The notes beneath the pieces are model-generated. The model was given only the letters and a program-made list of their open reading frames with translations. It was not told the DNA's origin and ran no database searches. A DNA stretch of 37,766 nucleotides. Origin: Escherichia coli. GTDB lineage: Bacteria > Pseudomonadota > Gammaproteobacteria > Enterobacterales > Enterobacteriaceae. Where the stretch lies: assembly GCF_003334305.1 (NCBI RefSeq), contig NZ_QOWS01000031.1, one strand, 5' to 3'. Of the stretch, positions 3,669-16,838 are shown piece by piece. The stretch's first letter is position 1, and every line of letters starts with the position of its first letter. The position numbers and the translations under genes are program-made.

Positions 3669-5051
3669 ATGGAGATGTATTTTAAAAGAATGAAAGATGA
3701 GTGGACCGGACTTGTCGAACAGGCAGATCCTTTCATTCGTGCTAAAGCCGCAGAAATTGCCCTTGCGCATGCTCATTATCTGAGTATCGAGTTTTATCGA
3801 ATTGTCCGCATCGACCCGCATGCCGAAGAATTCTTGAGTAATGAACAAGTTGAGCGGCAGTTGAAAAGTGCGATGGAACGCTGGATTATTAACGTGCTTT
3901 CTGCCCAGGTTGACGATGTCGAAAGGCTAATACAAATCCAGCATACCGTCGCGGAAGTGCATGCCCGCATAGGAATTCCGGTAGAAATTGTCGAGATGGG
4001 GTTTCGGGTGCTGAAAAAAATCCTCTATCCGGTAATCTTCTCTTCGGATTATTCCGCCGCAGAAAAACTTCAGGTCTACCATTTCTCGATTAACAGTATT
4101 GATATCGCTATGGAAGTGATGACCCGCGCGTTTACCTTTAGTGACAGTAGTGCCTCAAAGGAAGATGAAAACTATCGTATCTTCTCGTTACTGGAAAACG
4201 CCGAAGAAGAAAAAGAACGGCAAATAGCCTCAATACTTTCATGGGAAATAGATATTATCTATAAAGTCCTGCTGGATTCTGATTTAGGCAGCAGTTTGCC
4301 TTTAAGCCAGGCTGATTTTGGCCTGTGGTTTAACCATAAAGGTCGACATTATTTTAGCGGCATTGCCGAAGTGGGCCATATCTCCCGTCTGATTCAGGAT
4401 TTCGACGGTATTTTCAATCAAACCATGCGTAACACCAGGAATTTGAATAACAGAAGTTTGCGGGTGAAATTTCTATTACAGATAAGAAATACCGTATCGC
4501 AGATTATTACCTTGCTGCGTGAATTGTTTGAAGAAGTATCGCGCCACGAAGTCGGTATGGATGTACTGACGAAATTACTTAACCGCCGTTTCCTGCCGAC
4601 TATCTTCAAACGCGAAATTGCCCATGCCAACCGGACCGGTACACCACTGTCAGTGCTGATTATTGACGTTGATAAATTCAAAGAGATCAACGATACGTGG
4701 GGCCATAACACTGGCGATGAAATTCTGCGTAAAGTCTCTCAGGCCTTTTATGACAACGTCCGCAGTAGTGATTATGTTTTTCGCTACGGGGGCGATGAAT
4801 TTATCATTGTTTTGACTGAAGCTTCTGAAAACGAAACGTTACGTACCGCAGAACGTATTCGCAGTCGGGTGGAGAAAACCAAACTGAAAGCCGCAAACGG
4901 CGAGGATATTGCCCTCTCACTTTCCATCGGTGCCGCCATGTTTAATGGTCATCCTGACTATGAGCGCCTCATTCAAATAGCCGATGAAGCTCTGTATATC
5001 GCCAAAAGACGAGGTAGAAACCGTGTTGAACTCTGGAAAGCCAGTCTTTAG
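3669..5051 (+). CDS. dosC: Heme (globin-coupled) oxygen-sensing diguanylate cyclase, 460 aa
   Basis: 460-aa ORF; C-terminal GGDEF domain with intact RYGGDEF motif; N-terminal globin-sensor-like region; recognised as DosC (YddV). Confidence 0.9.
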   Translation: MEMYFKRMKDEWTGLVEQADPFIRAKAAEIALAHAHYLSIEFYRIVRIDPHAEEFLSNEQVERQLKSAMERWIINVLSAQVDDVERLIQIQHTVAEVHARIGIPVEIVEMGFRVLKKILYPVIFSSDYSAAEKLQVYHFSINSIDIAMEVMTRAFTFSDSSASKEDENYRIFSLLENAEEEKERQIASILSWEIDIIYKVLLDSDLGSSLPLSQADFGLWFNHKGRHYFSGIAEVGHISRLIQDFDGIFNQTMRNTRNLNNRSLRVKFLLQIRNTVSQIITLLRELFEEVSRHEVGMDVLTKLLNRRFLPTIFKREIAHANRTGTPLSVLIIDVDKFKEINDTWGHNTGDEILRKVSQAFYDNVRSSDYVFRYGGDEFIIVLTEASENETLRTAERIRSRVEKTKLKAANGEDIALSLSIGAAMFNGHPDYERLIQIADEALYIAKRRGRNRVELWKASL

Positions 5052-12778: not shown

Positions 12779-13697
12779 CACGTTATTAACGTTATGCGAC
12801 GTCCATATCAATTTCCCGGCCCGTAAAAACTGGCTTGGTAAAACTACGGAACATGTTCATGCCATTAATGGTATTGATTTACAGATCCGCCGTGGTGAAA
12901 CCTTAGGGATCGTCGGCGAGTCAGGCTGCGGCAAAAGCACCCTCGCACAGCTTTTAATGGGTATGCTGCAACCGAGCCACGGGCAGTACATCCGTTCTGG
13001 CTCACAACGCATTATGCAGATGGTGTTTCAGGACCCGCTCTCTTCGCTCAATCCGCGCTTACCGGTGTGGCGCATCATCACAGAACCGCTCTGGATAGCT
13101 AAGCGTAGTAGTGAACAACAGCGGCGAGCGTTAGCAGAGGAGTTGGCTGTGCAGGTGGGTATTCGTCCGGAGTATCTCGACCGCCTGCCTCATGCGTTCT
13201 CCGGCGGGCAGCGGCAACGCATCGCCATTGCCAGAGCACTCTCTTCGCAGCCTGACGTGATTGTGCTTGATGAGCCAACCTCTGCACTGGATATCTCCGT
13301 GCAGGCGCAGATCCTCAATTTACTGGTAACGCTACAGGTAAATCGCGGGCTGACCTATGTGCTGATCTCACACAATGTCTCGGTGATTCGTCATATGAGC
13401 GATCGGGTAGCGGTGATGTATCTCGGGCAGATTGTAGAACTGGGCGACGCGCAGCAGGTGTTGACGGCACCTGCACATCCATACACCCGATTATTGCTGG
13501 ATTCCCTCCCCGCCATTGATAAACCGCTGGAGGAAGAATGGGCATTACGTAAAACGGATCTGCCGGGAAACCGCACGTTGCCGCAAGGCTGTTTTTTCTA
13601 CGAACGTTGCCCTCTGGCAACCCACGGATGTGAAGTCCGGCAATCATTAACAATAAGGGAGGACGGACGTGAGATCCGGTGCTGGCGGGCGCTGTAG
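12771..13697 (+). CDS. ddpF: Dipeptide ABC transporter ATP-binding protein, 308 aa (GTG start)
   Basis: Walker A GESGCGKS, signature FSGGQRQR, Walker B IVLDEPT; GTG start overlapping ddpD 3' end by 8 nt. Confidence 0.9.
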   Translation: MSNTLLTLCDVHINFPARKNWLGKTTEHVHAINGIDLQIRRGETLGIVGESGCGKSTLAQLLMGMLQPSHGQYIRSGSQRIMQMVFQDPLSSLNPRLPVWRIITEPLWIAKRSSEQQRRALAEELAVQVGIRPEYLDRLPHAFSGGQRQRIAIARALSSQPDVIVLDEPTSALDISVQAQILNLLVTLQVNRGLTYVLISHNVSVIRHMSDRVAVMYLGQIVELGDAQQVLTAPAHPYTRLLLDSLPAIDKPLEEEWALRKTDLPGNRTLPQGCFFYERCPLATHGCEVRQSLTIREDGREIRCWRAL

Positions 13698-13752
13698 AGA
13701 TGCTAACAACGCATCAGGCATTCACGCGCCTGACGCGTCATCCGGCAATGCT

Positions 13753-14184
13753 TTACGATTTCAACTGGTAATCAAGCGTAATTTCCGCTTTCAGTACCTG
13801 AGAAACCGGGCATCCTGCTTTTGCTTTCTGGATGATGCCGTCAAAGGTAGAGGCATCAATACCCGGCACCGCAACTTCACTCTTCAGTGCGATTTTCGTA
13901 ATCGCAAAACCGGCATCCACTTTATCCAGCAACACATCGGCGGTGGTATCAATCGATGTTGGCGTAAATCCCGCTTCCCCCAGCATTAATGAAAGCGCCA
14001 TTGAGAAACATGCGGCATGCGCTGCGCCAATCAGTTCTTCAGGGTTAGTTCCTTTTTCGCCTTCAAAACGCGTGTTAAATCCATACGGCTGTTGGTTCAG
14101 CACACCACTCTCGGTGGATACTGTTCCCTTCCCGCGTTTGATATCGCCTTCCCAGTGTGCCTGACCTTTCTTATGGATTGTCAT
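13753..14184 (-). CDS. osmC: Osmotically inducible peroxiredoxin OsmC, 143 aa
   Basis: 143-aa ORF recognised as OsmC (OsmC/Ohr family); convergent with ddpF. Confidence 0.93.
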   Translation of the reverse strand: MTIHKKGQAHWEGDIKRGKGTVSTESGVLNQQPYGFNTRFEGEKGTNPEELIGAAHAACFSMALSLMLGEAGFTPTSIDTTADVLLDKVDAGFAITKIALKSEVAVPGIDASTFDGIIQKAKAGCPVSQVLKAEITLDYQLKS

Positions 14185-14529
14185 TGTTGCTCTCCTGTGG
14201 GCTTAAAAAGGAAATTATAGACTACGTGAGAAACAGCACGAGGATAAGCAGGATATTCCGAATAAAAATCCGGCAGAAATATTACTTCTGCACTTAAATT
14301 AAATTTCCACAATAGATAACCGGGAATATATAACCCAAGAGATATTGCATTAATATTAATCAACTCACCACAATAATAATACCTATCAATATCATGAGGT
14401 TAAAATATAAAAATCATCAACCAGGACTAATCTTAACAACGAAGCGGCAAATATTTGCCATGCTGAATGTGCTTTATAAATCTGCGATCCGTAGCAGACA
14501 CCATAAATACACAGACACGGAGAATCACT
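14185..14529. promoter_or_regulatory. Divergent osmC / bdm promoter region (AT-rich), with near-palindromic GGATATTCC element at about 14251-14259
   Basis: 345-bp AT-rich gap between divergently oriented osmC and bdm; the GGATATTCC core resembles an RcsB-type box as I recall it; exact -10/-35 not resolved. Confidence 0.45.
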
Positions 14530-14745
14530 ATGTTTACTTATTATCAGGCAGAAAATTCAACAGCAGAACCCGCTCTGGTTAATGCCATTGAGCAAGGCCT
14601 TCGGGCAGAGCACGGTGTTGTCACTGAAGATGACATTCTCATGGAGCTGACCAAATGGGTGGAAGCTTCTGATAACGACATCCTCAGTGATATCTACCAG
14701 CAAACGATCAATTATGTGGTCAGTGGCCAGCACCCTACGCTTTAA
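14530..14745 (+). CDS. bdm: Biofilm-dependent modulation protein Bdm, 71 aa
   Basis: Internal ATG at 14530 of ORF 14467..14745 gives 71-aa MFTYYQAENSTAEP..., recognised as Bdm. Confidence 0.85.
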   Translation: MFTYYQAENSTAEPALVNAIEQGLRAEHGVVTEDDILMELTKWVEASDNDILSDIYQQTINYVVSGQHPTL

Positions 14746-14846
14746 GGTGCTATGCTTGATCGGCAACCTAATTTAGGGGTTTAGCACGTGTTTCTTCGCT
14801 ACGGCGATGTTGTCCTTAAAACTAGCAACAGGATTGAGGAGTTAAA

Positions 14847-14984
14847 ATGAAATCGAACCGTCAGGCACGTCATATTCTTGGACTGGACCATAAAATTTCT
14901 AACCAGCGCAAAATAGTTACCGAAGGTGACAAATCCAGCGTGGTAAATAATCCAACCGGCAGAAAACGCCCCGCTGAAAAGTAA
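14847..14984 (+). CDS. sra: Stationary-phase ribosome-associated protein Sra (RpsV), 45 aa
   Basis: Not in ORF track (<60 aa). ATG at 14847 preceded by GAGGAG; encodes [45 protein letters not shown]; followed by a strong terminator. Confidence 0.85.
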
Positions 14985-15015
14985 TTCATAACCATCAGTC
15001 CTCAATGACGATTAA

Positions 15016-15049
15016 ACACCATTGCCTGCGCAATGGTGTTTTTGTTTTT
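15016..15049 (+). terminator. Rho-independent terminator after sra (ACACCATTGC-loop-GCAATGGTGT + TTTTGTTTTT)
   Basis: 10-bp perfect stem, 4-nt loop, long T tract. Confidence 0.75.
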
Positions 15050-15140
15050 ATCTGCTCTATACTTGGGGCCGACGCCCTGGCGGTAAAGCAAAGACGATAA
15101 AAGCGTGCCAGGGATGGATATTCAAAAAAGAGTGAGTGAC

Positions 15141-16838
15141 ATGGAACCAAAAACAAAAAAACAGCGTTCGCTTTATATCCCTTACGCTGGCCCTGTACTG
15201 CTGGAATTTCCGTTGTTGAATAAAGGCAGTGCCTTCAGCATGGAAGAACGCCGTAACTTCAACCTGCTGGGGTTACTGCCGGAAGTGGTCGAAACCATCG
15301 AAGAACAAGCGGAACGAGCATGGATCCAGTATCAGGGATTCAAAACCGAAATCGACAAACACATCTACCTGCGTAACATCCAGGACACTAACGAAACCCT
15401 CTTCTACCGTCTGGTAAACAATCATCTTGATGAGATGATGCCTGTTATTTATACCCCAACCGTCGGCGCAGCCTGTGAGCGTTTTTCTGAGATCTACCGC
15501 CGTTCACGCGGCGTGTTTATCTCTTACCAGAACCGGCACAATATGGACGATATTCTGCAAAACGTGCCGAACCATAATATTAAAGTGATTGTGGTGACTG
15601 ACGGTGAACGTATTCTAGGGCTTGGTGACCAGGGCATCGGCGGGATGGGCATTCCGATCGGTAAACTGTCGCTCTATACCGCCTGTGGCGGCATCAGCCC
15701 GGCGTATACCCTTCCGGTGGTGCTGGATGTCGGAACGAACAACCAACAGCTGCTTAACGATCCGCTGTATATGGGCTGGCGTAATCCGCGTATCACTGAC
15801 GACGAATACTATGAATTCGTTGATGAATTTATCCAGGCTGTGAAACAACGCTGGCCAGACGTGCTGTTGCAGTTTGAAGACTTTGCTCAAAAAAATGCGA
15901 TGCCGTTACTTAACCGCTATCGCAATGAAATTTGTTCTTTTAACGATGACATTCAGGGCACTGCGGCGGTAACAGTCGGCACACTGATCGCAGCAAGCCG
16001 CGCGGCAGGTGGTCAGTTAAGCGAGAAAAAAATCGTCTTCCTTGGCGCAGGTTCAGCGGGATGCGGCATTGCCGAAATGATCATCTCCCAGACCCAGCGC
16101 GAAGGATTAAGCGAGGAAGCGGCGCGGCAGAAAGTCTTTATGGTCGATCGCTTTGGCTTGCTGACCGACAAGATGCCGAACCTGCTGCCTTTCCAGACCA
16201 AACTGGTGCAGAAGCGCGAAAACCTCAGTGACTGGGATACCGACAGCGATGTGTTGTCACTGCTGGATGTGGTGCGCAATGTAAAACCAGATATTCTGAT
16301 TGGCGTCTCAGGACAGACCGGGCTGTTTACGGAAGAGATCATTCGTGAGATGCATAAACACTGTCCGCGTCCGATCGTGATGCCGCTGTCTAACCCGACG
16401 TCACGCGTGGAAGCCACACCGCAGGACATTATCGCCTGGACCGAAGGTAACGCGCTGGTCGCCACTGGCAGCCCGTTTAATCCAGTGGTATGGAAAGATA
16501 AAATCTACCCTATCGCCCAGTGTAACAACGCCTTTATTTTCCCGGGCATCGGCCTGGGGGTTATTGCTTCCGGCGCGTCACGTATCACCGATGAGATGCT
16601 GATGTCGGCAAGTGAAACGCTTGCTCAGTATTCGCCGCTGGTCCTGAACGGCGAAGGTCTGGTACTACCGGAACTGAAAGATATTCAGAAAGTCTCCCGC
16701 GCAATTGCGTTTGCGGTTGGCAAAATGGCGCAGCAGCAAGGCGTGGCGGTGAAAACGTCTGCCGAAGCTCTGCAACAGGCCATTGATGATAATTTCTGGC
16801 AAGCCGAATACCGCGACTACCGCCGTACCTCCATCTAA
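15141..16838 (+). CDS. maeA: NAD-dependent malic enzyme, 565 aa
   Basis: ORF open from 15105, but ATG at 15141 ([18 protein letters not shown]...) gives 565 aa; recognised as MaeA/SfcA. Confidence 0.93.

Follow-up and report, generated by a model that had tools for sequence, protein, structure and literature searches.

An RcsB-type box at the osmC promoter of Escherichia coli, its conserved position across genera of Enterobacterales and a separate candidate box for bdm

The near-palindromic 9-mer GGATATTCC in the divergent osmC-bdm spacer of Escherichia coli is very probably the core of the known RcsB operator at promoter osmCp1, acting on osmC only, with bdm served by a second box at positions 14422-14435. 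Positions refer to the window, that is, the whole stretch of 37,766 nucleotides that was analysed. RcsB is the FixJ/NarL-type response regulator of the Rcs envelope-stress phosphorelay. For osmC the RcsB interpretation is right and already known; mildly new are the positional conservation of the osmC box across many enterobacterial genera and the one-base-shorter spacing found in Escherichia. The result illustrates that a textbook operator of the Rcs regulon can be recovered from raw sequence, and it matters little beyond annotation, where a single shared site would give way to two independent RcsB boxes with fast-evolving AT-rich DNA between them.

The window is part of the E. coli chromosome. 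A 1.1-kb query around the element was 100% identical to many E. coli genomes and was found in 5413 of the 5426 complete genomes searched. Downstream of bdm lie sra and maeA, and ddpF is convergent with osmC. A preliminary description of this DNA had pointed to a shared AT-rich region of 345 bp, and the spacer (14185-14529) indeed has a GC content of 35.1% compared with 50.2% for the whole window, falling to 27% in its central 150 bp (14266-14415). This central part, located between the two boxes, is also the most variable of the spacer among E. coli alleles, with both substitutions and indels, and both promoter-proximal ends are conserved. No credible RNA family was returned by an Rfam scan of 13600-15200, and the spacer therefore matches no known RNA element. 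A sigma-70 promoter scan of the region gave two weak matches only, in the AT-rich middle, and shuffled sequences give as many.

Table 1 Features of the osmC-bdm region in window coordinates
Feature	Position	Strand	Remarks
osmC	13753-14184	-	CDS, peroxiredoxin OsmC, 143 aa
Divergent osmC-bdm spacer	14185-14529		345 bp
Sigma-S-type -10, CTATAAT	14214-14220	-	Overlaps TAGTCT; TATA[AC]T conserved in orthologues
Candidate osmCp1 -10, TAGTCT	14219-14224	-	17 bp past TTATCC; proposed from hexamer spacing only
-35-like hexamer, TTATCC	14242-14247	-	Directly abuts the box; putative -35 role
osmC RcsB box, TCGGAATATCCTGC	14248-14261	-	Consensus, position weight matrix (PWM), conserved offset from the -10
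Near-palindrome, GGATATTCC (osmC strand: GGAATATCC)	14251-14259		GGA/TCC arms 3 bp apart
bdm RcsB-box match, CAGGACTAATCTTA (other strand: TAAGATTAGTCCTG)	14422-14435	+	95 bp upstream of the bdm ATG
bdm core promoter candidates	14456-14480	+	From alignment; choice of promoter putative
bdm	14530-14745	+	CDS, 71 aa; ATG at 14530

The 9-mer, which had been placed at about 14251-14259, is found exactly there on the + strand, and the description of it as near-palindromic is accurate: the GGA arm pairs with the TCC arm, T faces T at the fourth pair and A occupies the centre. Taken simply as a string, it is within chance. It occurs once in the window against 0.28 copies expected, at least one copy was present in 26 of 100 dinucleotide shuffles, and there are 15 instances of the looser GGA-N3-TCC in the window. 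These counts are what speaks for a chance feature of AT-rich intergenic DNA without function, a reading that we regard as scarcely credible, given that the position of the 9-mer is beyond chance, with the RcsB box sharply enriched at one offset across genera, that its arms are kept in E. coli amid a variable background, and that RcsB control of osmCp1 has already been published. The palindrome forms the centre of the 14-mer TCGGAATATCCTGC, running from 14261 to 14248 on the osmC strand, and it is this 14-bp box that a dimer of phosphorylated RcsB would bind.

On the osmC strand, the order of elements is ...GGATTTTTAT TCGGAATATCCTGC TTATCC TCGTGCTGTTTCTCACG TAGTCTATAAT TTCC...(SD AGGAGA)...ATG, with the box 64 bp away from the osmC ATG. 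The left half-site of the 14-mer, TCGGA, is canonical; the right half-site reads CCTGC in a register with a 4-nt spacer (N4) or TCCTG with a 3-nt spacer (N3). The box ends at 14248 and TTATCC follows at 14247-14242, which places the box immediately upstream of the putative -35 hexamer. Two overlapping promoters serve osmC, the distal osmCp1 depending on RcsB and NhaR and the proximal osmCp2 on sigma S; CTATAAT is a typical sigma-S -10, and we take the one found here to belong to osmCp2. With start sites predicted from hexamers only, we infer that the centre of the box (14254.5) lies ~42 bp upstream of the start given by TAGTCT and ~47 bp upstream of that given by TATAAT. A search of Cappable-seq, ROSE, Rend-seq and 3'-end mapping data gave no usable entries for osmC and bdm starts. 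From its promoter-proximal place abutting TTATCC, RcsB would activate osmC transcription, and NhaR, a LysR-type regulator, would use a site overlapping the RcsB box.

Regulation of osmC by RcsB is known from the literature. Phosphorylated RcsB activates osmC, RcsB boxes have been likened to the one regulating osmC, and osmC showed a log2 fold change of 2.67 in Salmonella RNA-seq (PMC7913699). A review places RcsB homodimer sites usually upstream of the -35 and counts osmC among the targets. The osmC RcsB box itself is cited to Davalos-Garcia et al. (2001, J Bacteriol 183:5870), and the action of NhaR and RcsB at overlapping sites at osmCp1 to Sturny et al. (2003, J Bacteriol 185:4298). The published box shares with ours the gene, the regulator and the promoter-proximal place just upstream of the -35, and, judged by position and motif, TCGGAATATCCTGC is almost certainly the published osmCp1 element. 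A full-text literature search for the box sequences themselves returned unrelated papers only.

From the motif match alone, the RcsB call for the osmC site would be uncertain. The structure-derived box of the RcsB homodimer is TN(G/A)GAN4TC(T/C)NA, with a lower-affinity variant TN(G/A)GAN4(A/C)CTNA (Salmonella RcsB-DNA structures, PMC7913699). The left half-site TCGGA fits the former exactly; the osmC site departs from it in having C rather than T at position 10 and C rather than A at position 14 or, seen in the other register, arms 3 bp rather than 4 bp apart. One of these two mismatches to TNRGAN4TCYNA, C10, replaces the otherwise invariant T10. Matches of this quality (≤2 mismatches) number 518 in the window on both strands and would be expected ~4.7 times per 345 bp, and such a weak match, to be met several times in a spacer of this length, counts against an RcsB operator. 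The lower-affinity variant is matched with one mismatch, for which 0.38 occurrences are expected per 345 bp. When a PWM trained on 30 unique non-Escherichia orthologous boxes was run over the window (75506 positions scored), the E. coli 14-mer ranked 25th on the + strand and 86th on the - strand, that is, within the top 0.03-0.11%. The RcsAB box, TaAGaatatTCcta (Wehland & Bernhard 2000, quoted in PMC4325325), shares the same general dyad and the RcsB half-site family with the osmC 14-mer, which nevertheless deviates from it at 6 of 14 positions, and no match to the RcsAB box with ≤2 mismatches was found anywhere in the spacer. The preliminary description had likened the element to an RcsB-type box; this holds in that the element sits inside a 14-mer upstream of the osmC -35-like hexamer, where orthologues carry a box, but the GGA-N3-TCC register that it had singled out is not the canonical GGA-N4-TCC dyad.

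The position of the box was compared across species. We collected 80 osmC loci from Enterobacterales, nominally one genome per species, anchored them on the -10 hexamer and scored every offset from 0 to 109 for the published RcsB box. Of 81 sequences (the 80 loci and the window), 76 had the hexamer TATA[AC]T at 30-70 bp upstream of the ATG, usually as CTATACT; the five lacking it came from Pectobacterium (four loci) and Pseudocitrobacter (one locus). In 39 of the 76 loci, the hexamer was preceded by a box with ≤2 mismatches whose end lay 27-28 nt upstream of it (≤1 mismatch in 25 of these loci), and the remaining offsets had 0-4 matches each, except for offset 109 with 7; the loci are related and these counts are not independent events. 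The E. coli 14-mer is at offset 28. Among the 39 boxes, G4 was conserved in 38 and A5 and C11 in all, T10 was nearly invariant and the four spacer columns varied freely. This column conservation is partly circular because the loci were selected on the consensus, whereas the enrichment at one offset is not. In addition, every one of the 36 non-Escherichia boxes is followed, 2-3 nt on, by a TT dinucleotide that played no part in the selection, and the flanking and spacer columns are near random.

Genera with a box at osmC include Citrobacter, Enterobacter, Kluyvera, Lelliottia, Cedecea, Buttiauxella, Siccibacter and Superficieibacter, and those without it include Pantoea, Erwinia, Klebsiella, Rahnella and Hafnia. 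A point against the RcsB operator is that Salmonella and C. amalonaticus, the closest genera in which bdm lies beside osmC, have no good box at this offset. Among the box-positive genera, the gene upstream of osmC varies in both identity and orientation, and the box is therefore a property of the osmC promoter.

Within E. coli, 5402 of 5426 genomes contained the 40 nt surrounding the box, and the half-site arms were retained in all eight alleles sampled, in a region whose middle is highly variable. The A-run beside the box is polymorphic, with one A fewer in K-12. An ST131-type allele (L083, 367-375) carries GGATAATCC in place of GGATATTCC, the spacer base being changed and the arms intact, and its exact 39-mer occurs in about 1032 of the 5426 complete E. 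coli genomes (~19%). In isolate F467 (L085, NZ_OY754409.1, about 370-723), the osmC RcsB box is interrupted by an IS1 element directly after CAGGATATTC, corresponding to window position 14258/14259; the insertion cuts the distal half-site off from the promoter and parts osmC from bdm.

The Escherichia box differs from all others in its spacing. T10 and a 4-nt spacer were found in all 36 non-Escherichia boxes, whereas C10 occurred only in the three Escherichia sequences, in which the spacer is N3. When the E. coli promoter was aligned to the profile of the other genera, its score rose from 2.7 to 11.4 bits once the spacer was allowed a 1-nt gap; the same gap restored T10, C11 and Y12 and brought the TT after the box into alignment, both half-sites then being canonical. 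Given this gain, the Escherichia box is best described as the half-sites TCGGA and TCCTG separated by a 3-nt rather than a 4-nt spacer, and it is because of this contracted spacer that the 9-bp palindrome exists. The published lower-affinity (A/C)CT variant is an equally good description of this DNA. We tentatively propose, as a rather doubtful possibility read from the alignment, that the Escherichia lineage lost one spacer base (N4 to N3) and thereby may have acquired a deliberately weak or geometrically strained RcsB operator, functional in vivo, which could be tuned to sharing its DNA with NhaR or to responding only to high levels of phosphorylated RcsB. If true, this would amount to a response-regulator dyad with naturally altered spacing, which could be used to test the tolerance of the RcsB dimer to half-site spacing. 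An N3-spaced RcsB box at ftsA1p (GGATTATCC) was considered as well and rejected, as a scan of ftsQ-ftsA in MG1655 gave no such site.

A second constraint on the sequence would fit the departure of Escherichia from the N4 spacing of all 36 non-Escherichia boxes, and the reported overlap of NhaR and RcsB sites at osmCp1 suggests a candidate. The N3 palindrome could then be primarily an element recognised by NhaR, the activator of osmCp1 under NaCl or LiCl, with RcsB limited to the overlapping left half-site and a degenerate right half. We consider this unlikely, since in the gapped alignment E. coli retains the RcsB-consensus bases G4, A5, T10 and C11, and the palindrome is polymorphic at its central base; recognition by NhaR would in any case be compatible with RcsB binding.

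The core of an RcsB operator thus remains our preferred reading of the palindrome, and the question arises which of the two divergent genes it serves. The preliminary description had noted that both flanking genes respond to stress, which is borne out by the literature, where osmC and bdm are both reported as RcsB-regulated and osmotically induced, and had suggested that the one site at 14251-14259 might coordinate the two promoters. The shared regulation speaks for such a site, as does a table for S. Typhimurium that gives a single predicted box for both osmC and the bdm homologue yddX (PMC7913699). We nevertheless regard a single shared site as very improbable. Measured from its centre, the bdm ATG is 275 bp away and either of the candidate starts of bdm about 215-235 bp, and bdm has a better box of its own at 14422-14435. 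This second box, CAGGACTAATCTTA, has one mismatch to TNRGAN4TCYNA, is the top match in the spacer, ranks 8th of 75506 positions by PWM and is 174 bp away from the osmC box. A single shared operator would leave no separate second site and would be conserved with both genes; here a second site is present, and in many box-positive genera the osmC box keeps its offset with different neighbours and no bdm within 2 kb upstream of osmC. Because bdm has a separate, better-matching RcsB site, the site at 14251-14259 serves osmC only, and bdm would be driven independently from its own box.

Among the 80 loci, bdm lies beside osmC only in Escherichia, Salmonella and C. amalonaticus, and in these genera the distance from the bdm-side box to the bdm ATG is nearly constant (89-96 bp). 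In three Escherichia lineages, S. arizonae and C. amalonaticus, the half-sites of this box are kept and its spacer varies (CAGGACTAATCTTA, CAGGATTAATCTTA, CAGGAGTTTTCTGA). Downstream of the box, the block AAATATTTGCCATGCTGAAT is conserved in the three genera and contains the extended -10 candidate TGcCATGCT (14456-14464), likewise conserved across them; TATAAA (14475-14480) is less so. The centre of the bdm box would be near -42 if transcription started ~7 nt past TGcCATGCT and near -59 if TATAAA were used. The bdm promoter is reportedly RcsB-dependent (Francez-Charlot et al. 2005, J Bacteriol 187:3873). The candidate box at 14422-14435, with its canonical N4 spacing, agrees with this promoter in regulator and intergenic region; what sets it apart from the osmC box, besides the distance between them, is that it is conserved with bdm and not with osmC. 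Between the bdm box and the -10 candidates of bdm, at 14446-14459, there is a perfect 14-bp palindrome, GGCAAATATTTGCC. Salmonella and C. amalonaticus share its right half together with the adjoining CATGCTGAAT, and the palindrome may belong to the core promoter or be bound by another factor.

The osmC side has changed in these relatives. The osmC-bdm spacer of S. arizonae (Salmonella enterica subsp. arizonae, L015) is 519 bp long, with a ~190-bp insertion relative to E. coli that lies between the osmC sigma-S -10 and a distal RcsB-like box, TAACATTTTTCCTA; the distance from that box to the osmC ATG is 238 bp. This distal box corresponds in position to the RcsB box predicted for S. Typhimurium, TGAGATTTATCCTA, between osmC and yddX (PMC7913699 table). 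The latter involves the same gene pair and is on the osmC-distal side of the spacer; owing to the ~190-bp insertion, it is about 240 bp from the osmC ATG, as opposed to 64 bp for the osmC box of E. coli. In C. amalonaticus, the osmC-side box is degenerate, with three mismatches. Neither this degeneration nor the Salmonella rearrangement is in keeping with one site for both genes, and conservation within the spacer is lowest between the two boxes. Conserved ends, a variable 150 bp between them and independent evolution of the osmC side together point to two independent operators, one per promoter.

A consensus scan also flagged two terminator-like hairpins in the spacer, at 14273-14291 and 14445-14460. 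Both were rejected as terminators because they lie upstream of the promoters, where there is no transcript to end. The first is an inverted repeat, GCAGAAATATTACTTCTGC, just distal to the osmC RcsB box and flagged on the - strand, which is probably non-functional as a terminator also because it is not conserved among E. coli alleles.

Elsewhere in the window, the best PWM score for an RcsB box was obtained at 4044-4057 (TCGGATTATTCCGC / GCGGAATAATCCGA), with canonical GGA-N4-TCC spacing. This match lies inside a 460-aa open reading frame (3669-5051, + strand), whose size and map position lead us to take it for dosC. RcsB boxes within genes have been described in Salmonella.
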